This document shows positions 5,412 to 64,000 of a stretch of 64,000 nt of DNA, one piece after another (position 1 is the stretch's first letter; every line of letters starts with the position of its first letter). Where the stretch lies: NCBI GenBank assembly GCA_008632985.1, contig QPGO01000003.1:682001-746000 (forward strand), in the 5' to 3' direction. A program made the position numbers and the translations under genes. Below the pieces are notes generated by a model. That model ran no database searches. It was not told the origin of the DNA and worked only from the letters and a program-made list of their open reading frames with translations. The stretch comes from Psammoneis japonica. Lineage: Eukaryota.

Positions 5412-8400
5412 CAAAATGCTTTTCCCCAGAACTTTTCTTGAGGGGGGTCATCCCCGCGTTTGTCCTCTCTAGAATTACCGTGGCATTTGAATAAGATCAT
5501 GTGGTGTTTATTTTTGAATGCAAAAACCAGGCCTGCAGGGAGCATTGATCACTTTTCCTTTTGCAGTGCTGAGTGTCGCAGCATTGCTGTGGGCGTGTGA
5601 GCACGCAGGAGTGTGAGTGTGTGCTGTTGTGTGGTGCGTGCATTGGTTGTTCCGGCAGAGGGACAGTCAGATGTCTGTGACACGATGACTGTTTTTGCAG
5701 GTGGCAATGCGAATGGTGGTGTGGATTGCCGTCATGCCAGATGGTTCATGTCGACACGAAAAAGTCTGCAGTCACCAGCCACTGAGTGGTTGATGAAAAG
5801 AAGGCAGGTTCGGCAATGTTCCTGGGTGACGAAGCTGCCTCTGCAGCAATTTGTTCTGCTTGACTGCTTTGTTCTGAACCAGAGGAGTGTTGTCTGTGAC
5901 ATGTTGTTTCTGTTCTGTTTTGTTTCCCTGCTGCATTTTGATTGCTCCGTGAGAGACCAGAGAAGCTCACAACAAAACAGGCCTCGTTTTAGATTTTCCT
6001 TGATCCAGAGCAGGCACCTTTTCAACTTGCCACAGCCTGCCTTGTCAGGAGAAAATCTTTTTGAATGCAAATGATCAAAACCACATGTTGCGTGCCTTTC
6101 TCCCAGATTTTGCCACACACAAGCATGCTCTTTTTTGTCGACCAAATCAAGGCATTTGTTCGCACGCCCTTTGTCCAGCCAGTCCACGACATGGGTGTGT
6201 CAACATGTTCCAGATCTTCTCCACCTGGGCTGGATGGGCCATTTCCTTCTAACTGTTCATCTGGTGGCATCTGGAGCATGTCCTCCACATGACTCAACAT
6301 TGCCGGCATGTTCATCTTTGCAATTTGAATGGCTTGGTTTGCCGATGAGCTCATGTTTGGCTTCTGGTGTTTCATTGGCTGGTGCAGCAACAGCTGAATT
6401 GCAACAAGTTTTGGGATGAGTTGCAAGGAGGGTGCCGAGGGTGTCGACTCCACATTGACTCTGCACTCCCACATGACACCATGTGTTTTGACCATTCAAC
6501 AATTTTTTGGCATGTTCAATGCCTGCCAAACAACACTGAAATTGTCGCTTCATTCCCCATTGCATCAACCCTGATGGAGCAAAATCAAAGCTGTTGGCAT
6601 TCCTGCATTGCTCTGCTTGCTCTTTGCACTTGCAATGATTTTTCTTTCATGTGCCCGTGTTCAACGCCTGGACCAAACAATGGAGCCATTGTTCATTGTC
6701 AATCCCAAGCAGTGTCAATCACATCAGAGCAAGATGAAAGAGCCATTGACTTGAAACCATCAACTCCAAACTCCCATGACACAAAACAGCACAATCCATG
6801 CTCTGCAAGACAAAGTGCAAGATGTGAAAGGCAATGGATGAGCCATCCATGTGTCAAGCAACAGTTGCATGCAATGATGTTGTTGTTTGACATGCAAGCT
6901 TTAACTCACCTGACCAAAGCTTCACACATGCTGACAGTGGAGTTTTCACCTTTGAGCAAAAGCACCCACTGTGCCCTCCAGACAACTGCTGGGTTGTCAT
7001 CCGTCCAAGCAAAGATGGCAAGGAGACACTGACTTTCCCTTTTAGTGGGATGACCCCAAGTGCAATGAAGACATCAAAGATTGTGAGTGAGATGGGCAAC
7101 TGCAAAAAAAGAGAAGATCATGATGCCATGCCATGTTGACGGTCCAAGAGGGCTTGAGGTGTTTGCCATCAAGACCAACTGCAAAGAGCTCAAGACTCTC
7201 CACATGGCAATGAAGGATGCCACCACATTCTTGCAAGGAGGACTCACCCATTCACTGAACGACAAATGGGGAAGAGCAGCTTGCACGGAGCTTGTCAGCA
7301 TCAATCAAAGGTCCTGTGTCATTGTCGCAGGGATGTCAACAGCAGTGTGTGCTTCTGTCATGTGTTTCTTTTCTGCTTTGCATGTCCTCCATTGCTGAAT
7401 GTAACACACAAAGAACAATTGCTTGCTGTGGAGTTGGCAGCCACAAATCTGACCCCCCACGAGATGGACCTGTGATGGTCAGATCAGCAATGTGCATGTT
7501 CTGCTGACCAAAGGTGACCTTGACATAAAACAACAGCATCTTAGAATGCCACCATTTGCATTTCTGAATTTCCTGGTTCATGCAGAATTTTGTTTTTTTT
7601 TTTGGGTGCACCCATGGATTTGGTGTCAATTGCCATTGAAAATTTGTGATGGAAGTTGCCCAGAATGCAAAGTCAAGGCAGCTCTGCAGGGGAGACACCA
7701 AGGAATCTGAGCTGAAAGGGCAGAGATTGGCCACCCACAAGAGAGTAAAATGAAAAAAAAGCTGGACATTCTGATCAATGTTGGAGTGCCTGTCACCTGA
7801 AGGCACAAAGTGAGAGCCTTCAGCAACAATTTTGCGGTGTGGAAACTGCAGAGAACATGCAGAGGCATGCAACAAAAAGCTCAAGACAGAAACTCACAAT
7901 GAAAAGAGTGGAGTTGTTGAAATGTTGTTGCACCCATGTTTTGAGAATCCCGGTGATGATGCCATGATTGGAGAACAATGTCATGATTGAAAAAAGGTGT
8001 CACAACTGGGGTCAGGGGGAAGTGCACCAACTGCATTTGGCAAAGGGCTGGACTCACAAGTTTTGTGTTTGTTGTTGTTCATGCACTGGCTGCACTCAAC
8101 ACTCATCATTTGCAACATTTGTTGTTGAAAAGCAAGTCAGTGCATTGTTTAAAAAAGCCCATTGCATCTCATTGTGAACAAGTTTTCTTGTGGCTGCCTT
8201 TCATGTTGCACCCATGATTGTGTCCAAGTTTGACCTCCATTTGCAGAAACAGACAATTCAAGCAAGACACTCTCATCAAGCAATGCAAATGTGGCAGGTT
8301 GTGTCAAAGGCTTCTGCAACACAGGGAACAGAGATGATGCATCAATTTTGACATTGTGTGGAGATCACTTGTGAGGCAGGAGCAGAAACAACAGAGCAAA

Positions 8401-9599
8401 TCCATGAGATTTGATCAAACAGCAAGAAGTTGCCTCATTGTGCAATGGCTGAAAGAGAAAAAGTGCACCCGACCATGAAAAATGTGTCAGTGCTCAAGTG
8501 GCTGGCAACTGGCAATGCAACAATGTTGTGGCTGCAAATGCAGGATGATTGCACAAAGTGATTTTGTGGTTGTGCAATTGCCACTGCGCAGCACTGTTTC
8601 CATCTGCACAAAAGATGTTGCACTCCAGCTCTTTTCAACAAGATCTGGGTTCCATCTTCATGAATCATGCTGCCACTTCTGACAAAGTGACAAGAGTTTC
8701 AGCATGTTTGCCATTTTTTGTGCAGGCTTCTTGAAGCATGTCATCATTGTGGCAAGGATTGTGTTTTTGATCACATCATGCAGCAGTGGTGTGTCAGCCA
8801 AAGGGCTCGAGATCTTTTGCAGCTGGGCACTCAGCCTCTGCAAATCAAAAACATTCCTGTAATTTAACACATGTTTGTTGTGGAAAGAGACAACATTTGC
8901 ATTCTTTGACATCTCAGTGCAAAATTCATGCAGATTTCTGTGCAACTTTGGGTCAATTTGTTTTTGCACGCCACTTTGTGGTGCAATCATTGGGCCATCC
9001 ACTCGACAACTTTTGCTCTCTGATGTCTGTGAGTGTGACTGTGTGCAAACAGATTTTCCAAGATTTCATGCATGAAGATGTTAAAGACAAATGCCACATT
9101 TGTCATGCACCTGACACATGAGCTGCAGAGCCCACACACAGAATTTTGTGGGACCAATGCCCCAAAAATTCCCACCCAGGCCCAGAGAGCTGGAGCATGT
9201 CCCCTGATGCATTGCATGTCAACTGCAGCCATGATGACATGATTTGTTGTGGAGCAGATTTTTCCTTTAGTTTGGGAGTTTTCTTGTGTTGCTGTCAGCA
9301 ACAGAGGGGGCAGCTTGCCCTGGCATTGTTGCCATTGTTGAAGATGTTGATTGTGAGGATGCAGCTTGGCAGCCATTTTTTTCTGGCAAACAGGCTTCTT
9401 TTTCTTCTTTCCTTCTTTTGTTCTGCTCTGTCTTTGCCATCAGCCTTTTGTTGAGTCCACACAATTTCCTGATCTTTCAGGCAGTTTTCACTGTCATTGT
9501 CTTCACACAGAATGTGGTGTTGTGTGGGCTCTTTTTGTCAGGATTGCCACTGTGCAATGCCATCACACAGGTTTCAAATGGATCTGCCCATGACAGCTC

Positions 9600-11770
9600 C
9601 CATGTCTGCACAGAATGATGCCATCACTGAGACCCATTTGCACCAGGAGGATGATCCAGATCCCTTTTAGTGAGCTGAAAACAGTGAGGCATCTCATTGC
9701 TGTGCCATCTGAAATGCACACAGGTTGAATGTGACAACCAGTCTGCACATTGAGATGACAGTTGAACAGGATGCACACCAAATGCTGGTGAGTGCATTGC
9801 TGGAATTCCCTGCTGCAGTGACCCAAGTGGACTGAGTCTTGTTCACCCCAATCTTGTAGAGCAAAGTGGCAGATGTCTGTGTGGTGAGTGCATCAGCAGG
9901 TTTGCTTGCATTGGCAATCAATGGGGAGGCAGCATTGTCATCATGCACAAGGGTGGCCAGCATTTGTGAAATGTGCAACTCATCAGGAATCAGTTGGAGG
10001 TGCAGTGCCATCTCACCTGCATCTGCAGGAGGCAGGTCAACACAGCCATGTGCTGCAGCCAAAGGAGGAGGGTGGGCCACTTTTGGAAATGTGCCATTGG
10101 CTGCAGTGTGCCAGCTGGTCAGTCCACAATCAGGATGAGCTGCAAGATGCTGGAGAACATGCTGGACTCGTTCACAGCAGTGACAGCCTGGATTGGAGCA
10201 GAGTTGGCTGAGCTTGGCAGTGGCAAAGCCGACACCCATCTTGGTTGTCATGTTGCCATTGCTCAGACAAGTTCTCTGACAGTGCACCAGCAAGAAAAAC
10301 CTTGTTTGCTCTGCAGTTGTTGAAAGCTGGTGGGGACATTTGATGGTGTCGCTGCCTTGTGCTTGGTGCACAAAGCCTCGCCCAGGATGCAGGGAGATCT
10401 GTTGGGAGGGAGATCCATCTGTGTTGGAACCCCAGGAGGACAAAAAAATTGGGGTGGTTGGTGAATGGGCTTGTGGGTTTAGGGGGGAGCACTTCCCAAC
10501 AAAAAGGGGAATCCCCCCAGTGAAAAAAGCAGGGGCCCAGTTTTTGGAGTGCGTCATCACAATGCCTGTTAAACCCAGAGGGATCACACCCTGCAGTGCA
10601 GGTCAAGCCATCATCATGCGATCCATTGCACACATTAAACTGCAGTCTGCTCCAGCTGGGCACCTGGACAGGCCTTTTGTTGCATGCAAGAAGGAGAGAG
10701 AGTGTGATCTTGTCTGAGACCTCTTGTTTGATTCTCATTGAACAAGTTCCTCAGGAGAGAAAGCCTCATCTGCAGCAGGCGCATCATGCTCCATGGCACA
10801 TTTGTTCAATGGCATCTTCTTGCAATGGATGGCATCTGCCATTGCGGTTCGTTTGCGTGCACTGTGTGCTGCACTGTGCACCATGCGCTCGTCGTGGTCC
10901 ATGCTGAGTGGTGCGGCACATGGCACTTGGCACGTCCCAGTGGCTCGTGACCCACCTCGCCAGACAAAATAAACTGGGGAGCCCCAGCTCCCCCCTGAAC
11001 CCACAAGCCCATTGGTGAAGGTGCATTTGATGCAAGACATGCCACAGATCTTGATGAAATCTTGGGTTGGCTCAACATTGCATGCCAAGAAACTAGATGA
11101 GGAGGGGAGACCTTGGTGTTTTGTGCTTCAACGCTTCAAGAGAAGATCAAAGACACTGCACATTTTGTGACAGGTCTCTTTGGGGGCAACCACCATGGCA
11201 AAGCTGTTGACTTGTTCAAGCACTGGAATGGATTCACCATTGATCTCTCCACCACAGATGATGCATGGTTCATGGGCAGTGAGCTTGAGACCAAGGTGAA
11301 ACTGGATGAAGGTCTGTTGACATGGATGTCCCACGCTTGGAGGTTGGAGGTGAGCATGAGATCAAGGAGGCAAGAAGGTGGGGTGCACATGTTGCTGCAG
11401 GAGTGAGGCATCAGCAAAGGGCTGAGGATTAAAAAAGGTCAGTGGAGTCTGTGTGCAGGGGCCTGAGGCAGGGCCTGGCTGGCATTTGGGCAGGGCTTTT
11501 TGGAAATTGGAGAGAGCAAACCAGTGCTTGGGAGAAGAGGGTGTCATGGGTGACAGGGAGTGAAGGATGCTTGTGCCAAGGGCTGAGAATGCAGTTTGCA
11601 GACTTTGTCATTGGGCTCCAGGGCAAGGGATGCAACTGAATGGAGGAAAGCAGCATGAGTGCAGGCAGCGCTGAAGTCATTTTGACCATGTGACGAGGTG
11701 TCAAAACCAGGTGGGCCATTGGAGGGTGTGTGGGGTGAAGCTGCCTGAGAGGCATGTCAGGCCGCATCTG
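9600..11770 (-). mobile_element. Decayed Ty1/copia (CoDi-like) pol: RT and RNase H remnants
   Basis: LKLTAHEPCIICGGEINGESIPVLEQVNSFA resembles the RT motif TTHEPCLY...LRQVDDFA. Also VEPTQDFIKI, GFATAKLSQLCSNP...VQHVLQHLAAHPDCGLTSW, and LVHDDNAASPLIANASKP (RNase H). Confidence 0.75.
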
Positions 11771-12149
11771 AGGAGAATGGATTGAGAGTCATTCTGGAAG
11801 AGGAGGAAGAGGCACTGGGCAACAACAGGAGCTGAGGGTGAGCAGAGTTGCTGGGAGGAGGTCTTGGGTTGAGAGCGCAGGGGTTGAAAAAGAAAAAGGA
11901 GTTTCCAGAGCAGGGCTCAAGAGGTTTGCCAGCAAAACTCACTGAGAGATGGAAGGTGGTGCACTCACACAGTGGCTTCTGGCACTGAAGTGAGGAAGAC
12001 AAATTGAGGGGGGTCATTTGCTGCCATTTTGGCTTGGATTTGGCCGGCAATTTTTCCTGAATTTTGCAGTGCTTTGCCATGGTGAAAACATGATCAAGCC
12101 ACAAGTCTGTGACAGAGAAGGTCTGTCTGCCAACTCTCATCTGTTTTAT

Positions 12150-14060
12150 GTCCGTTGTTCATCAAAGGTCACATGCACACCAAATGTTTGTGGGTGGATC
12201 ATTGTGTTTTGGAGAAATGTCAAGATTGCCATCATCATCATGCTTTGATGACGGTGCCTGATGTTCTTGTTTTTGTGAGTGATCGGGTGTGAATGTGAAC
12301 AATTTTTGTGTTCAAAAACAAACACTGCTCTTGCTCCAAAATGCCACACTGCTGGACCAATGTGAATTGCTTTGTCCCTTTTCTGGGTTTCCCAACATCC
12401 AGCAGCGCATGAGACTCCTTGAGCGGTGCAAGTCATTCTTCAGAATCACTGCGTGTCAACTTTTCAAATTGACAGTTCTCTTTGTTGAGCATGTCAGAGT
12501 CATGCTCCTTGTCCCTGTGCTTTGGATCATTGTTTGAGGAACTTGACTTGAACATTTTTTGAACTGCTCCATTGATCAGCATGGCATTTGGTTCTTCCCT
12601 GCAACTGGCATTTTATTGTCACAACATGGCCACAAGCAATTGCCATTCAAACAACGCCTTTTTGGATCACATTTGTGTTTTTCATTGCACTCTTTTGCCA
12701 GTCTTTTAATGACCCAGCAATTGTGTGTGTTGTGAGCATCCTTTTTGCAGCGGTCACACCACTTGTCAGACTCAGAACATTTGGCACCAGAATGGTGACC
12801 ATTTTTTGAACCATGATTGGGTCCATCCTTGGCTTTTGATCTAGACTTGCTGCTGGCATCAGCCTTGACATAAACAGAGTCAAAGATGACTTCAGCAACC
12901 TCCAAACACTCTAGAATCTTTGTGCCAACTTGTCACAGGCATGCTTCAAAATTTCAAAACCTTGAAGCATTGACTGGTGCTGCCATTTGCATGGTGCGAG
13001 ATTGTAGAGGTGATGTCCTTGAGCTTGTCATCCTCCATCTTCTGGTCTTCTTCAAAAGGAGGACAGTGCTTGAGGTCTTTGTTGACTTTTTGAACCCTGG
13101 CGGCAATTTCGCGGATCTTCATGGTCTCTGGTTTCTTGAGATCGTGACGCAGACAATGCTTCTGAATTTGGAGAGCATTTTTTGGGAAGGCATGCTTGGT
13201 GAGGTGCTGCAGTCATTTTTTGAAGGCTCCTTTGCTCTCTTCATCTTCAACATTTGTGGCGCCATTCTTGAATGCATGCAATGCATCTCCTTGCAACAAC
13301 ACATGCATCAAATGGAACTCATCTGATTGTTTCTTGATGTTCTGGCCCACCAAGAGTTGACCACAGCTCTTCAAAAATTCAAGGTGCTTGGGAACACCTT
13401 GCTTCTTGCAGTGCTTGACATTGATGGTGTGGGTGCAGCCATCCTTCATTTCTGGATGACAGCACTGCTCCATCTTGAGGTGCTGGATTGGTTTGAGCAT
13501 CTTTGGCTCAGAGATCGACTCCAACAATTGAGGAACAATTTTCTCCTGCTTGAAGGAAGACTTGGCCTTGGCAACATGAGGCAAATGCTTCATTTTCATC
13601 TTGTCAACTTCTGTGGTGTGCACACACAATGCACTGTGCTTGAAGAATGAGCACAAATGAAAGCAGAACAAAGCACAAAGAGTGAAAATTGTGAGATTAG
13701 ATCTTGCTCAATCATTTTGGGTTTCTCCAAACAAGTTCTCAATGGCCTGAAGCTTCTGCACAGCTTCTGCAGACAAGAGGCTTTTCAGAGAATGCAATCA
13801 TGACAACAGATTGTCCGGATGCAATGACTGTTGACACACAAGATGTCAACACCATCAAGCAATCACATTTGCAAATTTCGACATCCAATCAATTCTGTGT
13901 GATTGATCTGTCCTTCACATGAACCCATGACAGATGCACGATTGAAAGTGTGGTGACATTCAAAACCATGGACACACACGCAAATGCACGTGGCAATGCA
14001 TGTTGCATTTGTCCCACTTTTGTTCAGCATCAAGAACTTTGCATGTTGACAGAAAGACAT
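12150..14060 (-). mobile_element. Decayed Ty3/gypsy copy B (leader, gag, start of protease)
   Basis: Colinear with about 16200-18130 at DNA and protein level, e.g. AKSSFKQEKIVP and LLVGQNIKKQSD in both, plus a CxxC..H..C knuckle. Confidence 0.8.
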
Positions 14061-14099
14061 TGTCGCAGGATTTTGGTGGGAGCTTTTCAGCCAGCTCTT

Positions 14100-17000
14100 C
14101 TGTGCTGAGATTTTCCACAGGCACTGTTTTTCTCATGGCAAGTCAGCTGATTGCATCTGCAACAATGTCAGCCTTGCCCTCAAGGCAAATCATTTTGAGG
14201 TTCTTCGTTGTCAGATGCCAATGCACAACTCTGTCCATTGTGAAATTTTTGTGCACAAGATTTTTATGATCCGCACATGTGTTTGTCTGTTGGCCAAACA
14301 GCACATTCTGGAATTCTTTCAGTGTTTCTACAATGGACAGTGGCTCTTTCTTTTGTTGCAGCACATTGTGTCTGTGCTTCATTCAGCTTGCGGCTGCAGA
14401 AAGCAATGGGTCGGTTGTTCTGCGTGACCACCGCTCCCAATTGAGAATCACTCCTTGTGTCAGCATGTGTCTCAAAGGGCATGTCAAAATTTGGATGTGA
14501 CAACAACATGTCTTTGGAGATGATGTGCTTCACATTTTCAAAGGCTTTTTTGTTCTGTTTCTGTCCATTGCCACTTTACCTTAGATGAGGTGAGTTTGGC
14601 TGAAGGAGAAAAAAACATGAAATCATTGAGGCCACATGTCTTGACATCAGCTGATCATCCCAGTGAAGCATCACAATTCCTTGCAAGATTTGGGAGTTGC
14701 AACAGCGTGAATTGCTTCTGCTTTTTTGGCATCAGACTGATGCCATTGCAAGTGATGTGAAAGCCTGGATGGTCTGCTTTGGGTTTGGCAAAGAAGGACT
14801 TCTTGGCATTGACCTTCAACCCGGCTTGTTCAAGGTGTGTGAACACCGTTTCAAGCTTCTTGAGATGGTCTTGAAAATCACCTTTTGCAAAACACAGCAT
14901 GTCATCAATGCAAGTCCTGACAAACTGCAGACTTGCCATGAGCTCACTCATGTGCTCTCTTGGAAAACATCCAGAGCTCCGCAGATTGCCGCGGGCAATC
15001 TGCAGCACTCATGTTTGTCTCAAGGCATGACAATCTTGCACAAACAATGTGCGTGTGGAGTCAATTTGACATGACAGTGTCCTGCATTCAAATTGAGTGA
15101 AGCAGCACACATGAAGCCCTTGAGCTTCTGCAGCACATCTTGAGCGTTGGGCAGAGGAAATGGAGCATGCATCAACCACTCATTCAGCTCACGGAAGTTG
15201 GACAGAAGTTGAACTCAACTGTTTTTCTTTGGTTGAATGAAGGTTGGAGCAGCCCATTTGGAGCTGTTTTTTAAACCTTCAACTTGCACAGTCTTTCAAC
15301 CTCCTTTCAAGCAGTTGCCTCTGAGGCTTGTGGTGTGGGAAATGGCTTGGTGTGATGTGGGCTTGTGCCTGATTTCAACTTCAAATCCACTGGTTTCCCA
15401 GTCCATTTGCCCAGAGAACCATCAAAAAGGTTTCCAAATCTTTTTAAGAGGAAGTTCAGTTGCTTCTGCTCTTCTGGAGTTAGATGAGTTGCTGCTGCAG
15501 TTACATTGTCAAGGTTGGCAGCATGACAATCTGAGTCAAGGATCCAATTGACCCTGTCATTGAGACCAATCACAGCATGAGATTCCTCAACATGATTGGC
15601 AATCAACTTAACCCTTCAACCACCGGACTGCTCCCTTACATCACAAACACAGCAAAACAAGCAATTTCAGATGTGGGCGACATTTTGTTCACGCGATTTT
15701 GTTTTGGAACGTGCACTCGCCAAAAATCTGGGGGAACCCTTTTTGTAATTTAGAAAGTTCAATGTCGACTTTTAACACCGGGTTTTTTGCAAGCTTCATC
15801 TGTGAACAGAGAGGAACTAAATCTCAACCTGTGACAATGCAGGTTGTCATGAACTGCTGTCACAAACAGAGCAACAATGCCACACCCTTGGAGCAAATCT
15901 CCGCCGGTGGAGATTTGCTCCCAACAAGTGAGTGCACTTGGCATGCTTTACGTAGATTCTACGAGACATGACATTTTCGCTCCCCTGGTGGTTGAAGGGT
16001 TGAGAAACTGGCATTGAAGAGTGCACCAACATTCTTCATTGGTGCAGCCACATCCTCCCATTTGATTTCTTTGTTTGAGAAGTCCAATGTGATCCCAAGA
16101 TTGGGCATTGAGTTGTGTCCCATGATCACATCATAACAACTTGAAGAAGAAAGGGTGTTGTCAGCATGTTCTGTTGTTTTGATCATCTCATGTTTGTCAA
16201 ATTCAGGCGAGGCAAACTGGATTTTACACTGACTGTCAGTTGTGAAGAGCCCTCCTTTGGTTTCCCAAATTTTGGTGGTGGATTCCTTGGCTCTGAGTTT
16301 CTGCGTGAATTTGTGCAAAATTGTGGTTTGCAATCTTCCGCTGTTGAGGAGAACATGCAGAGGCTTTTTTGCTTTGCCCAAAGAGGCACTCATGTGAGCA
16401 ATGACTGCTGGACTGGCATGAGTTGCTTTGGCCTTTTTTCTTGGCTTTTTAACATCCAGCAGTGCACAAGACTCCTCAAGCAGAGTGAGTTGTTCTTCAG
16501 AATTGCTGTGCATGAGCTGCTCAAATTGACAGTTTTCCTCACTGAGGGTGTCAGAGTCACACTCCTTGCTCTTGCGCTTTGAATTGTTGTTCAAGGAACT
16601 TGCTTTGAACATTTTTTGAACTGCCTTTTTGATCATGGCATTCAGCTCTTCTTTGCGAGTGGCATTTTCATTGTTGCAACATGACCACGTGCCATTGCCA
16701 TTTGAGTGATGCCTTTTTGGATCACACTCACAATTCCCATTGCATTCTTTGGCCATTTGTTTAATGACCCAACACTTGTGTGCATCATGAGTGTCCTTTT
16801 TGCAGCAGCCACACTGCTCATCAGACTCAGATTGCTTGGCACCAGATTGGTGACCATTTTTGGAACCATGGTTGGATCCATCTTTGGCTTTTGATCCAGA
16901 CTTGCTGCTGGCACCAGCCTTGACATGAGTGGAGTCAAAGAGGTCTTCAGCAACCTCCAGATGTTCTAGAAACTCCACCAACTTGTCACAAGTGTGTTTC

Positions 17001-19692: not shown

Positions 19693-20149
19693 GGATCTGG
19701 TGCTTATGTTTGTTTTTCCCTTTCTCAGATCTCACACGAAGAACACAGTGGTGAGTCATTTTCATGCAAATGACTGTTCTTGTGTTGCATCTTCACAAGT
19801 GCAAACCACAAAACATCTGGTGGAGCAAGCAAAGGCCAAGGCAAAGCAGAGTCATGTGTGGCTGGTGTCAACATGGTGGGTTCAATGCCACAGTTCATTC
19901 TTCTCTTTCTCTGCCACAAGGGATCTGGTGTTCATGTTTGTTTTTCCTTTTCTCAGATCTCATATGAAGAACACAGTGTGGTGAGTCATTTTCATGCAAA
20001 CGACTGTTCCAGTCGTGTTGCACATTCACAAATGCAAGCCACAAAACATCTGGTGGAGCAAAGGCCAAGGCAAAGTAGAATCATGTGTGACTGGTGTCAA
20101 CATGGCAGGTTCAATGCCACAGTTCATTCTTCTCTTTCTCTGCCACAAG
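19693..20149. repeat. Tandem duplication of a ~228 bp unit
   Basis: 19693-19920 and 19921-20149 both start GGATCTGGTG and end CTCTGCCACAAG. Confidence 0.9.
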
Positions 20150-52340: not shown

Positions 52341-52510
52341 GGGTGATGCCGATCTTGGCTAATTGACACATGCTCCTGCCACACCTGGTGTGCTGGGAGT
52401 GTGGGTTAGCTTGTTGCCGGAGTTGCAGGGTGGAAGCACAGCAGCACTTAAAAATTGGACTTTGGGTTTTGTTTTGGACTCAGCAACTGCACTCAACATT
52501 TTGCACTTTA

Positions 52511-52765
52511 ACCTCAGTCAATGCAGAGGTGTGATGTTTGCCTGCACTCAGAGGTGGCCATCAGCTGTGTTTGGCACACCGTCTGCGCAGTCTTCACCAG
52601 ACAGACACACTCTGTGTGGGTGTGTCATTTTGCACCTCAGTCTTGGCAAACACAGAGGTGTGACAGGCAACTCTTTCAACAGGATTGCTGTTGTGCTGCG
52701 GGCTGATTGCACATTGGACAACCCCAAAACCAGTCTTGGCAAACACGGAGGTGTGATGTTTGCAA
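52511..52765. repeat. Three short related repeats (CAGTCTTGGCAAACACRGAGGTGTGA) about 100-120 bp apart
   Basis: Copies begin near 52511 (degenerate), 52634 and 52729. Confidence 0.6.
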
Positions 52766-53369
52766 CAGATGCTGCACAAAAAGCTTTCATCCAACCTGGC
52801 CACTGAGTGGCCAATGAGGGCGACAATTTTTCAAAATTGAAGCGTGCCAAAAACCAAGCATTTGTGACTTTTTGCATCAAAAGTGAAAAACAAAGTTGTC
52901 AAAATCCAAGTTCACCCAATCTTTCAGCTGCACAAACAGACAAACATGGCTTCAGTCTCAGCAACATGGCCTCAATCATCTGATCAGGCAGCACATGCAG
53001 CACATGCAGTGGTGCTTTCAGCCCCTTTTTCCTCTTTGGGATGAATTTTGTTGAGAATGATCATCACAACACTCTCCATGCAGTCAATGATGTCAATTGA
53101 ATGTGGCACACAGCAAAAAAGACAAGGTAAAATGTGGTGGCTTTTGTGTGCAAAAATGCAACAGATCGTTTGTCTCACAAAAAATTGTTCCTGTGTCATG
53201 TTGACACAAGTGCATTCCTAAATCCTGTGTCATGTTGACACAAGTGTAAGCCACAAAGCATCCAGAGCAAAGGCCGAGGCAAAAGCAGAGCCTTGTGAAG
53301 CTAAAACCAAAGTGGCAGATCCAATGCCCCCACATTGTCCCTTTTTTGCACCTTGTGTGCAGAATGCAA

Positions 53370-54830
53370 CAGCTCATTTGTTGAAAAAAATCAACATTGC
53401 ATCATGTGACCACAAATGCAAGCCATGAGGCACCCAGAGCAGTTGACACAGCAAGGGATGCAGGCAAACCAGAGTTGTGATTGCTCTGAATGTCAAAAAA
53501 GATTGGAGTGATGTCCTCGACAATTTTGGTGCCTCGGGATGAAAAACTGGGTGTGCTGAAATCAAACATTGGCAAACAGATGTCTTGTTGGTCAAGAGAC
53601 CCAACAAACAAGGGAAAAGTCAAAAAAGTGTACCTTGTCAAGTGCACTTGAGTGCACTGTGACCCTTGCGTGCATTTCTACGTGGGACCACACCAGCTGC
53701 AGCATGGCCAAATTTTGCAAGTGTGTTGTGCACTGTGCCACATTCCACACTGGTGTGTGCTGGCAAATGATGAAACGCATTGCACCAAGCAGTGGACAAT
53801 GCTCCAATGAACATGACAAAAGCCAACAATGTGCAGACAAAGCAGTTCTAAATTGGACAAAGAAAAGAGTTGTTGTTTGCAGAAAACTTGAAAACTCAGC
53901 CTCAAATCACATGCTGCACATTTTTGCAGAAGTTTTGCCAAACAAGATGGAAATGCAGACTGGGACCCACTGCTGCAACATTGCATCAAACTGCAAAGAG
54001 AAGGTGACATTGATCTGCCCCTGGAAGTCAGCATCAACAACAAATCCCTCCACAGAGTCAGTTTGCATGGGCGATGCTGCCTCTCTCAGCATGTCAATCA
54101 TGTCTTGGTCTTGCATGACAATGTGAGCATCATCTGTGGTGAGCTGCTCAGAAACAATGAAGCTCTGGTTCACTTCCTTTCGGAAACTCACAAGGCTGGC
54201 AATGGTGGAGCTCATCCCTGTTTCCTTTGAGATCTTCTTCCTCATGTTTTTCACATGGTCTTTGTTGTGAAGAGCGGGATGAATCTGTGACACTGCACTT
54301 GAGGCCTGGTTGCAGCCCCAAGTCTCAGCTGTGCTGGAGTCAACTCAGGAGCAGCTCTGACAAGCTCTGCAAGCTTTCCTTGTGCTGCCATTGGGAGCTT
54401 TGATGGTGGGGGTCTTGGGTGTTGGTGCCTCCCTTTGTGGCTCATGAGCCAAGAGATGGCACTGACTTCTTGACAGGTCAGCAGGCAGGTGCACTCTTTG
54501 TGCTCCAATTTTGACTCTTGCTCATGATTGGGGCACACCAGCTTGGGAGGGAGTGGTGACCCAAACTTCTTCCTTCCTGTCTGAGGCTGCGGGGCCTTTC
54601 AAGAAACTCTCCACAAAGGGAGCAAACAAAGACACCCATGCAGCATTTGCAAACTTTTCTCAAGCCCTCTGTGGATTTTTTAGTTGAGCAAGTGCCCATT
54701 GCCCAGCCTGTTGTGGGGGAGAATGCACCCAAGCCTTTGGCCCACCACTGCATCTTGCAGTTCGGAAACTCATGCTCTTCCACCACAGCCTTTTTTGAGC
54801 TCATGACAGGGGGCTTGACAGCCTCAGAAG
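53370..54830 (-). mobile_element. Decayed Mutator-like transposase with N-terminal GCM-like zinc domain
   Basis: GWAM...KVCKCCMGVFVCSLC...ERP, CP...LEHKECTC...HKGRHQHPRPP (GCM pattern), then QTDSVEGFV...INVTF...WVPVCISILFGKTS (DDE core start). Confidence 0.55.
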
Positions 54831-56966
54831 CAGCAGCTGAGGGGTGCCTGTCCTCTGCATGGGTGAACCCTGGGCTGGGTGTGCCTGGAGCTGACCTCAG
54901 CCTCCATCACCCGGAAGATTTCAGTCACCCTCTGCTGAGACTGAATCTGCTCCATTCTTGCTTGTGACAAAAGAAACTGGTGGAAAAAATTCCTGTCTAG
55001 AGCACATTCTTCATGCTGGGACAAGCTTCTCCCATCATCTTGTGAGTCATCCCCATCCATTGTGGTGGCAACAGGTGCTCTCCTCTCCCTGGAAGAATGA
55101 GAGTGTGTGGCTGTGGCTGACGGTCCTCTGCAAAAAACAAAATTGGGATGCCACATTTGACAGGTTGGTCAGACAAACAGCCCACATGGTGCAACTGTGA
55201 AGAAATTGGGGGGTTTTCACTCACCAAGCAGTGCTGCAGTGCTGCAGTGCTGCAGTGCTTCTTTACAAGGCGGGAAAGGCAAATCAAATGCAAGATGTGG
55301 AACATGTGGAATTCAACAGAAATTTTGTGCGGCATGGAAACACCGCATGTTGCATGATTTGTGTTGCATGCACACAGAGCAGAAACAGCACTGCAGCAAC
55401 AATGGCAAATGAATCAGACAAACAACGAAAGATGATGCAAATGCGACAAATGCGCAAAATGACAAACAAAAACATTGACATGAAGGGAAAAAATCAAGGC
55501 AGACAATGGCGGCTGCAGTCACCTTGTTGATTGCACTTTGCGCTGTGGACAATTTCGGTTGAGTTGTGTGTGGTTGTGTGCGATGCACAGCACAGGAAAT
55601 TCTGCTGAGTTTTCGTGGGACTTGGTGTTGGACGTCAACAACAACAACAACACTTTCTGCATGGAAACTCAGTGCAGTGACACACAGAGTGCACTCAATT
55701 GATCAATCACCACCTGTGCAGAAATGTGCAGGACATGCACCAAAAACCTCCAACTTTGCTTTTTGGGTGATCTGGTTGCAATCAAGACAGTGCCAAAAGG
55801 CCAAAGCAACTGACAATGAAAACTTGTGCATCACATCGTGTGACACATGATGGAATTTTGGGAGAAAAAATGGGCTGAAATTGATGCATTGACCAGTCTC
55901 AACAATTGCAAATCAAGGTGCACTTAGTTTGCCATTTGCGACCAAGCCACGACTTGCGCAGGAATGCACAGAAAATGTGCCAGGCTCCAGAATTTTCACT
56001 TTTTGATGATCTAGTTGCGATTGAAATGGTGCCAAATGACCAAAGCAATTGACCACCTGCACTTCTGCGGATGATGGAAAACCACATTGCAGAACTCTGG
56101 GAGAAAAACTGGGCTGAAAATGATGACTGTGTTGGACTTGTCGAATGGAACACAAAGCACACTAAAAAGCACACTTACGACTGAAAAGCACACTTGCGAC
56201 TGAAGTCGCACGTAGAATTCCACATGGTCATCTGGTGCACAAAAAAGGGTACACTTCAAGTGCACTTGAGTGCACTCATTTGTCTTTCCTCAACAAACAA
56301 CCACATCTGCCTCAAATCTCCACACTGTGAATCTGGAGTGTGCAATGGTCAATTCCATGACCATGGTTCCCACCCCTTTCTGTTGCTTTTGCACTGACAG
56401 TGTTCCTCACAGGTTTGCAGAAACAAACTGTGTCCTCATGCTGACCCAGGAGCTGAAGGTTGATGTGTCACTTGGATCAAACTCTTCATTCACTCCTGCT
56501 GTGAAGATTGTTGAACACTGGGCAGCAAGAGACAAAGGAATTGGATGCCACCAAACGTGCCCTGATGGAGTGCTTTGAACGCAATGAGTCACAAAAGCAC
56601 GATCATGACGGCAATCTCAAAACAATGGCAAGCGACAATAAGAAGAAATCAGAAACGCCGGTGAGTGTCAACAAGCAAGAGGCGTCCAAACACACGGTGG
56701 AAGAAGCGCGCAAAACGCGACAAGCACACAATGCAAGTAAAAAGACGGAACAAATAAAGACCAAAGAAGCCAAGGAGGCCAAGCAAAAGCTAAAGGAAGA
56801 ACGAGAGTGTTTATTAAAATACGAAGGGTAGTTGCTGAATCTCCCTTGCAAGCTAATTTTCATGCAGTGTCGTAATTCAGTGCTTCGATCCTTGGTCCAA
56901 CTGTAGGCATTTGACTTCCCAGTTCAGTCGCTGTACAAGAACCAGAGGCAGTGTGCCAACACCACT

Positions 56967-58294: not shown

Positions 58295-58625
58295 GACAAC
58301 TTGCTGTAAGAGAAGGAATCGAAAACACCTAACACCCAACACCCAGCTACTGTAACTAACTAACACGTCGTACCTATTTTGTTACGACTGTCGATTGATT
58401 GTCGTGGTGTCGGTTGTCGGTTGTCGTTGCCGGCGGCAAATTTTAATAGTATGTATTTATATACGTACATTTGAATAAGAATATATATTAAAATCATACT
58501 GGCATACAGTAAGGACTTCGGGGCGGATTTCAGATTGCGGCGATGAGCGATGAGGATGAGGCGATGACGCCGTAGTACGTCGTTGAGGTTTTTCCCTTTA
58601 CGCCATCTTCATTCTCCAGCTGATC

Positions 58626-60291
58626 ATGGCAGAAACTCAAGCGGCCACAAGCGCCTCCGACCATGATGTTGACGGTCAACTTGACAGCAAGTTTGTTCGC
58701 GTCATGAATTTGCATGAGACTGGGATCAGTGTCGAACAGTTCGTCAAAGGTGGAGCGTCGACAGATTGTGACGGACTGTCACATTGGACTGGTCGATGGG
58801 CTTCCTGGAACTGGCAAATCATCCACGTTGTGGTGGTCACTTTGACAACTGCTGGCAGAAGGCATTTGGCTTCTCTGGACACACCTCGATCGGTGCGGAA
58901 ACGTCCATGATGTGGTCCACAGCAAACGGAAGTTTGCTCATCCGACCGACGGATTAGGTCGAATGGGATGCCCTGATCAAATCTTTGGATGATCTGTCCG
59001 AACAATGTTCAGCCATTGTGTTTGACGGGGTCAACCACATGAACTTCAACCAAGCAGTTCTCGCTTTGCGCAAATTTGCACTGAAAAGAACTTGTCTGAC
59101 CGCTGCGGTTTCACTGCAATGTCCAACAAAATTTAGAGAGAGCATGAACACAACCTGGACAAATGGGTGGAAAAACAGAAAGATGGAGTTTTTGTGGCAC
59201 AATTCTGTCATGCGCAGCACTCATGGACTCTTCTGGAAGAACATTTGAGCGCACGCGCAAACACCGATGGATCTGCTGCTGCACTCTTGGAGGAAGTGCT
59301 CCCTTCATTTGAGAAGGAGTGGAACACAGACATGACAGGCCAGAAAGCTTTGAAAACAAAAAAACATCAAAGCAACAGGAAGGCCAAACAACATGTGTCA
59401 GTCCAAGAAGCAGTGACCCAGAAACATGCATGTGCTGGCGGTTCCATGCGATGGATGGCATCGGAAACGGCAGAGTCGATGTCTGACTTGATTGCGGGTT
59501 GCCTCACAGAATGCATCCAATTGGACACTCTGGCAAACATCACGCTTGGACAGGAGTCACCCCACTGAAAAACTCATCTTCATTCTTCCACACCAGATGA
59601 CCATGGTCTGCCAGTTCGTTCATTGCTCAGCCAGCATGCAACTGTTTTGGCCGTTCAACTCCTTGGATCAGCTGAAACTAAAACCTTGCATCAACATGCA
59701 ATGAGACTCAAGAATCCACCATTCCTGGGTTGGGTGATTGAAGCAGATGTGATGCAGCAGTGCAAGAGTGGACCTTTGTTTCTTCAGGGGAGGGATCAAA
59801 CACGCGTCCAGTTTGCAATGAAGGGAGAAGATCCCACTGAATTCAACCCCAACTTGCTTGACGATGCAGCTTTGGCAAAATTGATGGCCCCACCAGGCAT
59901 GGAATCATGTGCATGGAAGTCTATGTGGTGGAACCAAGGTGGGCATGACACAGTTTTTGTGACGGCTGCTCCTGGTGTGGCGTTGCATCTTCGGTTTGGA
60001 CAAGTGACGAAATCATTGACACACTCCTTGAAGCTCCAGCATTTTTCTGAAGCAGTCAGCTCTCTTGTTGGAGCTGGCCACAGAATCGTCAAAGTTGAAA
60101 TTGCTCTCATTGCTTTGAAGGATGACATGCAGGGATTTTGTGTGATGCCAAGTGAAGCATTTGGTCGTGGTCTCCTGTCACATGCCAACTCACCAACACA
60201 GAACAAGAAGTGTGGGCAAAGGGCAAAGAGGAAAAGCTTTGTCGCTGTGTGCGGCATTGATTTGAGCCAGATGGGCCACATTTCACAGTGA
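58626..60291 (+). pseudogene. Decayed Crinkler-like P-loop NTPase plus restriction-endonuclease-fold gene
   Basis: Walker A VDGLPGTGKSS (about 58792-58824), AIVFDG, AGGSMRWM, GWVIEAD, and WNQGGHD...LRFGQVTKSLTHSLKL. Frameshifts and stops present. Confidence 0.6.
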
Positions 60292-61962
60292 CAAGATTCC
60301 ATGTGCCTGGCATTGGTGCAAGTGGCTCAAAATGACAGGATTGATGCAATGCACCCCCCGCATCACTGTGTCCAATTCACCTCTCAAGTGAGAATTTTTT
60401 TCTAGAAACTCAGTGCTTGGAGAATCAGCAATGTCCTCAGCATCATTTGAATCTTCATAAGTTAGATCCTCTCTGCTCCCCAAGAAGGTGAGACGATCAC
60501 CTCCCAGTGCTTCAAGTTCCTCTGCATTCTCACAGAAAAGAGCCGGAGCTTGTTTACATCCTGGTTTGGCATGGGGGGCTTCAGTGTTTGTGTTGCCCAG
60601 ATGAGTCCCTGCCAGTCTCATCTTCATTGAAAGCATTGAGATTTCCATTGTTGACAGCATCCAAAAACAAGGGATCACTTCCCACTGCTTCAATTTCAAA
60701 CTGCCATCTGTCACAAAACTTGCACATCATGTGAACAAACACATTTCCCATCTGCCTTTTCAGCTTCTGACCACCATCTTTCTCATTGTTGGCAATGCTG
60801 GAGGCTCAAAAAATTGACACATGGGCCCCAGCATGTCATCCACAGTGTTGGTGCGGGGTCACAAATTGAAAACATGCACAGCCGATGGCCCAGATGCAGA
60901 TGAAAGTGGAACAGATTGGGGTGCCGTTGGCCAAAAAATGACAAAAACAATCACTCTTAACTTGTGACAAAACAGTGGCACAATGGATTTTTGACCAAGG
61001 AGACTTTTCTCTTTTCTGTGAGCAGCACAAAATTGGCAAGAAGTGTGGAGCTGAGCTGTGAGCACATTTTGCTCAGCACAGGCTGGATGCAATTTTGAAG
61101 CCCACCATTGTCTGTGGATGATTGTGGCAAGTCTGCCAGCCATTTTCAGACTTGAAGAGTTGGGAATGCTGTGGTTGCTTTGGGGCATCATCTCCTCTTT
61201 TTGTGAGAACTTGCACAACAAACGCAAGCACTGCACTTGTTTTGACCCCCCACATGCAACAGCAGAATTGCAATCACAACTGCACTTGTTGTTGACATTT
61301 GCAAAAAGGCAAGTGCAAAATTCATGCTGGTGTCAAGGAGCCATGCCAAAAATCTGCCAGGGAACTCTTCAATTTTTCCACTTGGTGAGTCAACATTTCC
61401 AACCAAATGAAGCTTGAGCATTTTGTGTTGCTCAAATTTGCAACCGCAAAACCATTTTGCAGACTCAGCAAGTTGGACAGTTTTGTGGTGCTGCTGGCAC
61501 ATGTGGGAGGAGCAAGTGTGTCAACATGGTTTTGTGTGACAACCAACACCTGAGCAAGATTGGCGCAGTTGCTCCTTTTTGTCATGGTTTCCATTGTCCC
61601 AAAAAGGGACACCTGAAATGCATTCAAAGTGAAAGAAAGTCATGGCAAGTGCCATTTCTTCAGTCTGTGCAATTTGTTGTTCACTCTGTTTTGTGTTTTT
61701 GTGAGCTCTTGCTCTTTGCTCTTTAGCCCATGGCTTCTCGTCTGAATTTTGGGGGCTTCTTGGAAGATTGGAAGCCAGGCAAACAGCAACAGCTCTGCTG
61801 AGTTGGTGCAGTGCCTGGTGACAGAGAAAGAAAGAGAGGGAGAGAGAGGGAGCCATTTGAGAAGCCAGCAATGTGTGTGTTGTGGTTGTTCAAGGAGACA
61901 GCAAGTGTTGCAATTTGTTGTGCTTCATCAACTTGTGTCTCAACAAGAATGATCTTAGGATC

Positions 61963-62233
61963 TGTTGGAATGTTGGGGTGAGAGGCAGTTTTCACAACAC
62001 AGACAGACAATGTTGCAGTGCATGAGGTGCTGACAATTGTGAACAACATGGTGAATTTTCACTTGCAACTTGGGTTGAGTTGCAGGTCTTGTGCTCACCT
62101 TTTAGCTTCTGCACCCAGTTGACACAGTGACAGCAGTTGACAGCATTGGGGAAATGTGTTTGTGAGCCATGTGGTGAGTTTGGAGTTGGTGAGACCATGC
62201 ACACACCTGTTGGCAAACTGACAAACTCCAACA
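61963..62233 (+). repeat. 5' LTR (271 bp)
   Basis: TG...CA termini with a 7 bp terminal inverted repeat. Confidence 0.9.
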
Positions 62234-63610
62234 CAGAAGCTGAAAATTCAAAGCACAATGCTCAAAGAAGTGGCATTGTTCAAAGGCCAAGGATTGGAAG
62301 TCATCAAGAATCAAAGAGCACACCAGGCTAGGAAGTTGTCAGGAATCCAAAGATGCACCTCATGTTGGCAGATTGTTGTAAACAAGCTGGCTGGATGAGG
62401 GTGAAGAAACAATCTCTGGAGGGCCTTGCTGCAAATGAGCTGTCAAGAAGGGTCTGATGAAACAGGGTGTGGCAAAGTTGTGTTGGCATCAGTGAGACCA
62501 AGTGTGCAACAGTCGGCAAGTCAAATGTTGGTCTGAAACAACATGGGCAAGGAGACAACTGAGTGCAGAACCACAAAAGATTTGAAGAGTGGGTGCATGA
62601 CATCATTGCTGAACCAAGACTGCAGGCAGATGGTTGCACAGAAACTGCAAGGAAGATTGGTGAGTGTGCCGGAAGAATGTTCAGGCTGGAGATGCAGGTG
62701 TTGGCATCTCTGCTGAGGCAGGAGAGTGCACCAAATGAGCCAGAGCATCTGTCAGGAGACAGCACATTGAAACAGGAAAAAGCAACCTGGTGCAAGCAAT
62801 GTGATCACCATGCAAAACAGAATGCAACAACCTGCAAGACACAGAAGGCAAAGGCATTTGATGCAACCATGGGACAATGTGCAAAGGCCACCCACAACAA
62901 GACTGCTGAAAGAGTGATGGAGTTCATGAGAGTCATGAAGGAGTGGGACATGGCAACACTGTTGGCAATTGCTTCTCAAGTCAATCTTGTTTGATGCAAA
63001 TTATGAGAAGATGTGTTTGCATGTCCAGGTGGTCAAAGCTTGGAGAAGCAGTTGGCACCAATTTGTCAAGATGAAGGAGAGGCACTTCAAGGTCAACACA
63101 ATTGGCTCACAAGCATTGTTGAGATGGCAGAAACATCCTGTGGCAGGATCATCTTAGAGGAAATCACCAAGACAGAAGATGGGTTCAGCAAGAATGCTGA
63201 CAACACCTGGAACAAAGAAAGAAACAAGTTGTCAGTGGCAATGCTGATGGAAGGCATCAAGGCACATTGGCACATCTTGAACAAAGACCTGCATTGGCAG
63301 TTTGCACTGGGGGCAGACAACAATTGTTCCAATTCAGCTGAGGAGGCACTGCAGGTGTTGAACACATGTGAGACTGACAAGAAGCCCAAGGGCACAAGTT
63401 TTGCACAGAACAAGAAGAAGCAGGTTAAATGCTGGAAATGTGGGTGAGGCTGGCCATGTGAAAAAGGGTTGCCCTGACAACAATGATGTGGGCCACAGAA
63501 ATTGGCAGAGCAGTTGAAGTGGTGTTGGGTGGCATGGTTTCCAAGTGTCATCCTCCTGTGCTGCTTGATGTGTGTGAGGTGAGTCAATTGACGGCTTGTG
63601 TGAAGGAGTG

Positions 63611-63883
63611 TGTTGGAAAACATTGGGATGGTGAGAGGCAGTTTTTGCAGGACAGACAGGTGGTGTTGCAGTGCAAGATGCACTGATGATTGTGGACAAT
63701 GTGGCAAATTTGCACTTGCAACTTGGGTTGAGTTGCGGGTCTTGTGCTCAATTTTTGGTTTCTGCACCTGGTTGACATGGGGCAATGGTGGCTGGCAGCA
63801 AATGTGTGTGTGAGCCATGTGGCCAGCTTGGAGTTAACAGGACCAAGCGCACACCTGTCAGCAAGTGCCATGAAACTCCAACA
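63611..63883 (+). repeat. 3' LTR (273 bp)
   Basis: Colinear with the 5' LTR, same termini. Confidence 0.9.
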
Positions 63884-64000
63884 GGATCTTCTTGCTGCAT
63901 TTTGAATTTCTGGCAGCAGTGGCAACTGGAAACAAAGAAGCAGTGTTGGGGTGTGGGTGCGCGCAGAAAGAGGGGCAAGAGAAAAGGGCCAGGCTGCATC

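Follow-up and report, generated by a model that had tools for sequence, protein, structure and literature searches.

Why is the dinucleotide TpA nearly absent from most of a long stretch of diatom DNA whose embedded genes are of ordinary composition? The stretch, termed here the window, comprises 64,000 bp of Psammoneis japonica (NCBI GenBank assembly GCA_008632985.1, contig QPGO01000003.1, positions 682,001 to 746,000 of the forward strand; positions below are those of the window). An earlier sequence-only reading had proposed a repeat-targeted hypermutation in which TpA, as well as CpG, is changed to TpG or CpA. In the window, TpA is converted to TpG and CpA on both strands and after duplication, within bounded domains and separately from the loss of CpG. 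The explanation that is held to be very probable is a region-targeted, context-specific rewriting of TpA in place in old transposon and pseudogene DNA of the diatom, with a deaminase as the putative agent.

TpA is converted to TpG and CpA after duplication

A two-state hidden Markov model based on TA counts in 100 bp bins, run alongside sliding 1 kb dinucleotide statistics, assigns 47,100 of the 64,000 bp (74%) to depleted segments with sharp edges. The pooled depleted DNA has 175 TA dinucleotides, an observed/expected ratio (o/e) of 0.05, and 571 CG (o/e 0.22), where the rates found in the gene islands would give 1853 and 2363, respectively. CA (n = 5271, o/e 1.86) and TG (n = 5432, o/e 1.79, or about 1.8) are abundant, and the G + C content is 0.474. 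The gene islands, 16,900 bp in total, have 665 TA (o/e 0.55) and 848 CG (o/e 0.93), CA and TG at 1.23 and 1.22, and a G + C content of 0.466. The five sharply bounded domains previously described as making up about three quarters of the window are matched by the model segments (Table 1), with two small leaky patches set aside, and the sliding ratios computed across the 64 kb confirm both the depletion and the normal composition of the islands.

The depletion is specific. Other dinucleotides made of A and T are spared in the depleted DNA (AA 1.21 as compared with 1.15 in the islands, TT 1.25, AT 0.86) beside a TA value of 0.05. The trinucleotides that are lost are only those that contain TA or CG. 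TCH trinucleotides are not depleted, and the loss of C is thus limited to CG.

The direction of the change is provided by polarised comparisons. When the window is compared with itself by BLAST, one pair of segments links an island to a depleted domain, and the island member (Table 1) can be taken as a proxy for the ancestor. All 12 TA dinucleotides of the island copy are changed in the depleted copy, eight to TG and four to CA and none to any other dinucleotide, i.e., by transitions only. Of 13 CG, 11 are changed to TG (5) or CA (6); of the remaining two, one is TT and one is retained. CA and TG themselves are mostly retained, at 30 of 34 and 23 of 28 sites, respectively. A second comparison is that of the methionine synthase relic with contigs of a public run, X2, which is labelled 'DNA?'. 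X2 probably represents transcripts (RNA), in this case those of the working gene, because its contigs appear spliced: two of them skip 93 and 117 bases inside island genes. Ten of 859 differences are listed, and eight of these ten are TA to TG (2), TA to CA (1), CG to CA (4) and CG to TG (1), with two that do not fit; TA sites are changed to TG or CA in three of three cases.

Repeat pairs show where and when the changes took place. Between two direct repeats of 1.6 kb, similar to the long terminal repeats (LTRs) of retrotransposons, there are 261 transitions and 62 transversions. Adjacent double differences number 129; in 76 of these, CA of one copy is matched by TG of its partner, and the next class, AC/GT, has only 11. 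These 76 doubles signify that the two copies underwent mutation independently of one another, in place and after duplication, with both strands affected. The corresponding 152 sites (2 × 76) amount to 9.4% of dinucleotides, which is near the 9.0% share of TA + CG in the islands. Half-resolved sites consist of 6 TA and 24 CG, the excess of CG indicating a slower or later conversion of this dinucleotide. It is estimated that about 90% of TA + CG copies were resolved after the duplication, as compared with a pairwise divergence of about 11% at other sites.

Four further repeat pairs in depleted DNA have 1, 11, 8 and 9 CA/TG doubles, and a repeat pair situated inside normal DNA has none. The youngest pair, a 229 bp tandem duplication, has 16 substitutions, three of which are TA/CA, three CG/TG and two of which form one CA/TG double. 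Action on both strands is seen also in the nearly equal numbers of TpG and CpA products in the depleted DNA. Processive single-strand tracts are rejected, since CA and TG do not follow one another in clusters in depleted DNA by a runs test (5483 runs versus 5347 expected, z = +2.7; islands, z = −2.8).

A natively TA-poor composition is ruled out by the conversion of TA in the gene-fragment copy, in the methionine synthase relic and in the discordant repeat copies. The directional A:T to G:C change at the DNA level that was put forward in the sequence-only reading is thereby borne out, both by the 12 polarised TA sites and by the repeat doubles.

A forward model reproduces most of the composition. 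Island sequence was put through three rounds of change with per-round probabilities of 0.6 for TA and 0.4 for CG and a 50:50 outcome of TG or CA. The resulting values are close to those observed: CA 1.83 (observed 1.86), TG 1.86 (about 1.8), TA 0.04 (0.05), CG 0.20 (0.22) and G + C 0.464 (0.474). As the gain in G + C by TA loss offsets the fall by CG decay, the domains have a normal G + C content.

A precedent in Bigelowiella natans and a comparison with fungi

A precedent is provided by a preprint on the chlorarachniophyte Bigelowiella natans (Mettrop et al., bioRxiv 10.64898/2026.01.13.699255). In mutation-accumulation lines, 231 of 302 mutations are in two integrated viral regions. All but one of the viral-region mutations are A>G or T>C, all of those are at TpA, and the TpA mutation rate is ∼6e-7 per site per generation. 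The genome also has 124 clusters that are TpA-depleted and enriched in CpA + TpG, and low-TpA genes are enriched in reverse transcriptase and DDE endonuclease domains. The authors propose that adenine is deaminated and name an ADAT2-like candidate; they also cite ADAT2 enzymes that act on DNA (Mettrop et al.). The process was not recognised as a described genome-defence pathway in the sequence-only reading, but with this report of TpA-only A>G/T>C hypermutation of integrated viral DNA it is no longer undescribed. A full-text literature search, covering sources other than subscription journals, yielded the B. natans preprint alone for the signature and nothing on diatoms.

The two systems are alike in several ways. 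The changes are A>G/T>C at TpA only and produce TpG or CpA according to strand; they are in delimited regions that are silent or foreign, outside which the genome is normal. In the long term TpA becomes depleted and CpA + TpG enriched, and adenine deamination is proposed for both. The process in P. japonica is of the same kind as the TpA hypermutation of B. natans, found in a second lineage, with transposon and pseudogene targets, near saturation and with CpG decay alongside. There are also differences. The host here is a diatom (Stramenopila), whereas B. natans belongs to the Rhizaria. In the window, the process acts on transposon relics and on fragments of pseudogenes, within domains that comprise multiple elements, as opposed to the giant-virus or virophage insertions described in B. 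natans. The depletion in the window is near saturation (o/e 0.05), whereas a Rho of 0.45 is given for the nucleocytoplasmic large DNA virus region of B. natans. CpG loss is co-located with TpA loss in the window, whereas the preprint text never mentions CpG or diatom. A flank rule (T-A*-Y, where the asterisk marks the altered base) is derived below, and none is stated in the Results and Discussion of the preprint; a de novo rate, on the other hand, was measured only in B. natans (Mettrop et al.).

Another comparison is with repeat-induced point mutation (RIP) of ascomycete fungi. RIP is also a heritable, dinucleotide-specific transition hypermutation of chromosomal DNA; it strikes both strands of transposons and of genes that are duplicated, and leaves behind dead relics with a strong dinucleotide footprint. 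The direction is opposite, as had been pointed out in the sequence-only reading. RIP changes CpA to TpA, raises TpA and creates AT-rich regions (e.g., PMC2621366), whereas in the window TpA is erased (0.05), CA/TG is raised (∼1.8) and G + C is unchanged (0.474 versus 0.466). RIP makes stop codons, whereas the process here removes TAA and TAG together with Tyr codons. RIP also senses duplication, whereas the island copy of the 343 bp duplicate, a length shorter than RIP needs, is untouched.

The signature was defined, in 1 kb windows, as TA o/e <0.2 together with CA + TG o/e >1.5, and it is present in 89 of the 127 1 kb windows of the 64 kb. For a sample of other DNA, metagenomes were scanned by means of an alignment of the histidine-kinase-like protein encoded in an island, which yielded 67 loci, 25 of them diatom-like. 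The signature is in none of the 729 1 kb windows of the 42 other loci.

Flanking bases, domain edges and the proposed agent

The survival of TA in depleted DNA relative to islands, with the strands symmetrised, varies with the bases on either side: ATAT 0.006, ATAC/GTAT 0.007, ATAG/CTAT 0.015, GTAC 0.026, ATAA/TTAT 0.071, CTAC/GTAG 0.075, GTAA/TTAC 0.12, CTAG 0.20, CTAA/TTAG 0.32 and TTAA 0.38. The range is about 60-fold, with RTAY hit the most and YTAR the least. By itself, survival leaves two options, an effect of the base after A or of the base two positions before it. The favoured reading is that the target is 5′-T-A*-Y-3′, with the following base ranked T>C>G>A. Three observations are consistent with this predicted target. 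The depleted DNA has an excess of GC and a deficit of AT dinucleotides, as would result from TAC to TGC and TAT to TGT changes; all five informative polarised sites conform (CTAT to CTGT, ATAA to ACAA, TTAC to TGC, and CTAC to CTGC twice); and the ratio of YTGY (= RCAR) to YCAY (= RTGR) is 1.43 in depleted DNA versus 1.04 in islands (Fisher p = 4e-4). ATAT and TTAA, although identical in composition, are 60-fold apart, which argues for recognition by a protein over duplex breathing.

The following mechanism is proposed. The domains would represent old transposon and pseudogene DNA that was rewritten in place as chromosomal DNA, TpA becoming TpG when the A of one strand is changed and CpA when the A of the other strand is changed. 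The process may have run until ∼91% of TpA was gone relative to the gene islands, and the strand that is hit would be set by the flank, with preference for an A before a pyrimidine in the order given above. A second, separable process has removed about three quarters of CpG and yields the same TG/CA products; the simplest candidate is deamination of methylated CpG. Targeting would follow the contiguous domain, whose edge is sharp to ≤100 bp, and not individual elements or homology. As the agent, an enzyme is proposed, the likeliest being a DNA adenine deaminase that would turn A into hypoxanthine, which is read as G; silent chromatin would presumably guide it, and it would serve in genome defence. 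The tRNA A34 deaminases (TadA, ADAT2/ADAT3), from which base editors have been derived, have a target A that is preceded by U/T, and the bacterial substrate, U-A-C, resembles the T-A*-Y preference; the natural enzymes differ in that they act on RNA loops and not on chromatin domains. To our knowledge, there is no known enzyme for natural programmed A:T to G:C hypermutation of chromosomal DNA.

The flank rule has a counterpart in which thymine is the altered base. An enzyme might modify or oxidise T in 5′-R-T*-A-3′ in silent chromatin, for example to a 5-substituted uracil, and the mispairing of this base with G would produce T>C, seen as A>G on the opposite strand. T-A*-Y becomes R-T*-A when the opposite strand is read; the two are indistinguishable by sequence, and the thymine explanation fits all of the sequence evidence equally well. 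Lesions of the 5-formyluracil type give T:A to C:G transitions, and some protists modify T preferentially at TpA. This explanation is nevertheless considered unlikely. The U/T before the target A is that of the tRNA A34 deaminases. The sole published treatment of the signature proposes adenine deamination with an ADAT2-like candidate (Mettrop et al.).

The edges of the domains separate the loss of TA from that of CG. Averaged over nine boundaries, TA o/e drops over 100 bp from 0.68 to 0.11; as TA positions served to place the boundaries, this step is partly by construction, which is not the case for the lag in CG. Examples of adjacent TA positions at boundaries are 5509 and 5990, 24102 and 24611, and 58599 and 58955. 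Inside the boundary, CG o/e is 0.91 in the first 100 bp, 0.57 at 100–200 bp, ∼0.3 at 200–800 bp and ∼0.15 beyond 800 bp. In the domain that reaches past the end of the window, the last normal TA is at 58599 and CG is dense to about position 59100. The loss of CG sets in ∼200 bp deeper in the domain than that of TA and is on this account a separate process; TA conversion needs no local loss of CG. CG survival also varies with flanks, from ∼0.16–0.18 where TCG is present on either strand to 0.42 for GCGC.

Deamination of 5-methylcytosine (5mC) probably explains the CpG half of the signature. It converts CG to TG/CA, CG o/e is 0.22 in the same domains, and 11 of the 13 polarised CG sites are changed in this manner; diatom transposons are CG-methylated. 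However, this decay cannot cause the loss of TA, and its boundary lies ∼200 bp inside that of TA. A connection by way of error-prone repair in methylated chromatin was offered in the sequence-only reading; deaminated 5mC would form a T:G mismatch, and low-fidelity patch repair would give A>G at a nearby TA. Although TA loss and CG loss do share domains, such a connection is very unlikely. TA is already gone within the first 100–200 bp, where CG is still 0.91–0.57. The 12 polarised TA changes are all transitions and AA is not depleted, whereas in the A:T phase of antibody hypermutation the low-fidelity polymerase makes transversions too and attacks AA and TA alike. In addition, the 60-fold dependence on flanks includes the ATAT and TTAA pair, which are equal in composition.

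The depleted domains cover several unrelated relics together with spacers. The island copy of the duplicated gene fragment keeps all 12 TA and its depleted partner has lost all of them, with a shared length of only 343 bp, which is below the length that RIP needs. From the multi-element domains and the untouched island copy, targeting looks domain-based (chromatin) and not homology-based. The process lies within transposon and pseudogene domains, as the sequence-only reading had it, but its term 'repeat-targeted', taken in the RIP sense of homology sensing, goes further than the evidence, as the island duplicate keeps its TA and whole domains of several elements are affected.

A base-calling artefact on modified DNA was also raised in that reading. 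Errors of base calling or assembly, for example T called for 5mC and G for a modified A, would then conceal TA and CG that the true DNA has kept. A public run, X1, contains 0.99 of 858 sampled 31-letter words from positions 24601–33000, and its contigs over 28001–48000 have a word depth of ∼50–65 in depleted and normal parts alike. Differences between X1 contigs and the window number two over 28001–29371 and none over 29531–31845 (2315 bp), both at a depth of ∼61–65×, none over 33670–36046 (2377 bp) and one plus three gaps over 36110–37585. As the depleted sequence is matched by X1 words at gene-like depth, miscalling of modified bases is unlikely. Exact words at this depth appear to fit accurate sequencing-by-synthesis reads and not noisy direct-detection reads. 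The relics, moreover, bear frameshifts, stops and ∼12% ordinary divergence besides the TA/CG changes, and TA loss varies 60-fold with flanks. Even with the possibility that X1 is the source of the assembly, an artefact is highly improbable.

Some differences between single X1 contigs and the window in depleted DNA consist of three CA/TG doubles, one TA/CA and three CG/(CA or TG), and these look like allelic or strain differences of the same mutational kind. Within 38837–42134, comparison of the window with the only X1 contigs present gives 9 letter differences and 6 gaps over 1036 bp, and 16 letter differences and 10 gaps over 2103 bp. In such parts of the depleted DNA, divergence between alleles or strains seems to be raised.

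Editing of element transcripts by an ADAR- or ADAT-like enzyme with a 5′-U preference, followed by reverse transcription and integration, is scarcely credible even though an LTR-retrotransposon relic is present and RNA adenosine deaminases favour U before the edited A (Mettrop et al.): A>G and T>C are found on one strand (Tyr to Cys and Tyr to His; TG 8 versus CA 4 in one fragment), the direct-repeat copies were resolved independently, with 76 CA/TG doubles, and the depletion extends equally over the non-retroelement methionine synthase, delta carbonic anhydrase and island open reading frame (ORF) fragments and over all of the spacer DNA, as far as a single sharp boundary that they share. The independent resolution after duplication and the equal depletion of non-retroelement DNA exclude editing of RNA before integration, and the argument against ADAR editing made earlier from changes on both strands is confirmed.

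Several points weigh against the preferred explanation, that of region-targeted rewriting of TpA by a deaminase. It concerns an accumulated footprint as distinct from present-day activity, and the enzyme and the chromatin signal that would target it are putative. Few sites could be polarised (12 TA and 13 CG, together with the 10 listed of 859 differences), and in the core alignment of island and relic 22 of 60 substitutions are of the TA/CG type, with much ordinary divergence besides. The forward model presumes that the elements began with an island-like composition, and it misses the GC dinucleotides (1.07 versus 1.26 observed) and AT (0.98 versus 0.86); this miss in turn points to the strand rule. 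The flank rule is not clean, since CA/TG discordant sites are flat by flank class (14, 17, 19, 18) and thus do not strengthen the strand rule, and there is in the Y__R class an excess of TG (54 versus 29) that the rule leaves unexplained. X1 may be the assembly's own source and so not independent, and the view of it as accurate short reads comes from word depth only. As to generality, the signature is in none of 333 1 kb windows of the 25 diatom-like metagenome loci (184 kb), although these contigs are gene-centred and say little about absence from other diatoms.

A tentative idea, possible but held with well under even confidence, is that diatoms and chlorarachniophytes might share an ancient chromatin-guided DNA adenine deaminase (T-A*-Y) that erases TpA to disable transposons, gene fragments and viruses. 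It would constitute a second arm of defence beside cytosine methylation throughout the stramenopile–alveolate–rhizarian (SAR) group. If such a shared system is real, its effect on G + C is cancelled by CpG decay, and it would be invisible to genome scans based on G + C. The only prior report of the signature is the 2026 preprint, on one alga; the diatom footprint adds a second and ecologically dominant lineage, and it widens the targets from viruses to transposons and pseudogenes. The T-A*-Y preference and the offset of the boundary from that of CpG loss can serve as handles for finding the enzyme and the chromatin cue. A natural DNA adenine deaminase, if confirmed, would be of interest to base editing.

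Relics, genes and other features of the window

The islands carry ordinary genes, which encode a histidine-kinase-like ATPase, histone H2A, an amine oxidase, RNase H2 subunit C, a family-3 G protein-coupled receptor and a protein kinase; exons are long. The named relatives of the histidine-kinase-like ORF among the best 120 matches are all from diatoms, mostly raphid pennates, at 46–51% identity, and the best match without a species name is at 58%. These matches place the host among the diatoms and apart from B. natans. Depleted DNA carries relics only, with matches to RVT_1, RT_RNaseH_2, delta carbonic anhydrase and the pterin-binding part of methionine synthase (Table 1).

Table 1. Depleted domains, repeats, relics and peptide motifs in the window
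Feature	Position	Strand	Properties
Depleted domain, part 1 of first large domain	5501..15400	.	TA 35 (o/e 0.05), CG 0.18, CA 1.96, TG 1.71; TA boundary at 5509
Leaky patch, intermediate depletion	15401..16000	.	TA o/e 0.26, CG 0.44; ORF 15612-15968 without Pfam match
Depleted domain, part 2	16001..20600	.	TA 16 (0.05), CG 0.17, CA 1.97, TG 1.78
Small patch of normal composition in first domain	20601..21200	.	TA 0.48, CG 0.96; ORF 20486-20821 without Pfam match
Depleted domain, part 3	21201..24600	.	TA 12 (0.05), CG 0.29; TA boundary at 24611
Depleted domain	28101..30600	.	TA 0.08, CG 0.22
Depleted domain	31701..33000	.	Single TA (0.01), CG 0.31
Largest depleted domain, 20 kb	36701..56700	.	TA 79 (0.06), CG 0.22, CA 1.81, TG 1.86
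Depleted domain reaching past window end	58601..64000	.	TA 18 (0.05), CG 0.24
Direct repeat copy A, LTR-like	12348..14007	+	80% identical to 16404-18055 over 1625 aligned bases
Direct repeat copy B, LTR-like	16404..18055	+	Partner of 12348-14007; pair flanks reverse-transcriptase relic
Tandem duplication of 229 bp, youngest repeat pair	19693..20151	+	93% identical; sole find of tandem-repeat scan
Unmutated island counterpart, proxy for ancestor	27296..27624	+	In island 24601-28100, inside ORF 27248-27811(-), no Pfam match
Hypermutated copy of island gene fragment	38469..38810	-	78% identical to 27296-27624
RNase H relic of LTR retrotransposon (HPNF, AFCSRK)	14312..14572	-	RT_RNaseH_2 E 2.7e-13
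Reverse-transcriptase relic, CIDD replacing YxDD box	14658..15008	-	RVT_1 E 2.8e-6, 27.6 bits, under 29.6 cut-off
Delta carbonic anhydrase relic (CCYP) at domain edge	32803..33105	+	PF10563 CA_like E 6.4e-7, 30.1 bits, cut-off 26.3
Methionine synthase (pterin-binding) pseudogene fragment	46009..46359	+	Pterin_bind E 1.3e-5; human MetH E 3.7e-14
Motif AFCSRK	14387-14404	-	Present in depleted DNA
Motif HPNF	14486-14497	-	Present in depleted DNA
Motif CIDD	14901-14912	-	Present in depleted DNA
Motif CCYP	32845-32856	+	Present in depleted DNA

The effect on coding is missense over nonsense: Tyr is changed to Cys or His, ATA to ATG or ACA, Arg codons are lost, and TAA and TAG vanish. In a six-frame translation, Tyr makes up 0.09% of residues in depleted DNA versus 2.32% in islands, and Cys (6.36 versus 3.71) and His (5.31 versus 3.63) are raised. 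The four peptides that had been cited as products of Tyr to Cys or His changes, CIDD, AFCSRK, HPNF and CCYP, were all located in the depleted DNA. YxDD is the usual reverse-transcriptase motif. A retroviral reverse-transcriptase chain, 'pvaYlskkl', aligns to 'piafCsrkl' in the RNase H relic, with one Tyr replaced by Cys, in a weak match (E 0.33). In the alignment of the methionine synthase relic with human methionine synthase, for which there is a solved structure, both Tyr residues of the aligned stretch are His in the relic.

With TAA and TAG nearly absent and G + C normal, many long spurious ORFs are formed in depleted DNA. ORFs of at least 150 amino acids are found throughout the depleted domains, and 2 of 133 stop-to-stop ORFs of at least 110 amino acids from these domains (the two leaky patches included) have a Pfam match at E ≤ 1e-3. 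Depleted DNA thus represents a trap for gene prediction, and the Tyr to Cys/His changes mask homology to transposon proteins.

The delta carbonic anhydrase relic crosses the edge of its domain, with the TA boundary at about position 33072, and the adjoining island has X2 contigs that start near 32980–33100. The relic may represent a gene whose upstream part was engulfed by the depleted domain. X2 gives no cover over most depleted parts of 28001–48000, which is not evidence on expression. Among the public runs listed as containing window sequence, none is labelled as RNA.

Scans of the window with Rfam and for tRNA genes gave no match. The patches at 15401–16000 and 20601–21200, which have no Pfam, Rfam or tRNA match, may be younger insertions or locally protected DNA. 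At positions 31719–31743, CG is present at every fourth base (seven CG, at 31719, 31723 and so on to 31743), just inside a TA-depleted domain that otherwise loses CG. One particularly abundant sequence is at 44009–46009, where the X1 word depth is 300–960 as compared with ∼60 elsewhere and where there are many contigs, 80–99% alike. It represents a family of high copy number whose own TA is depleted. Either hypermutated words are common to many of its copies, or it expanded once TA had been lost.

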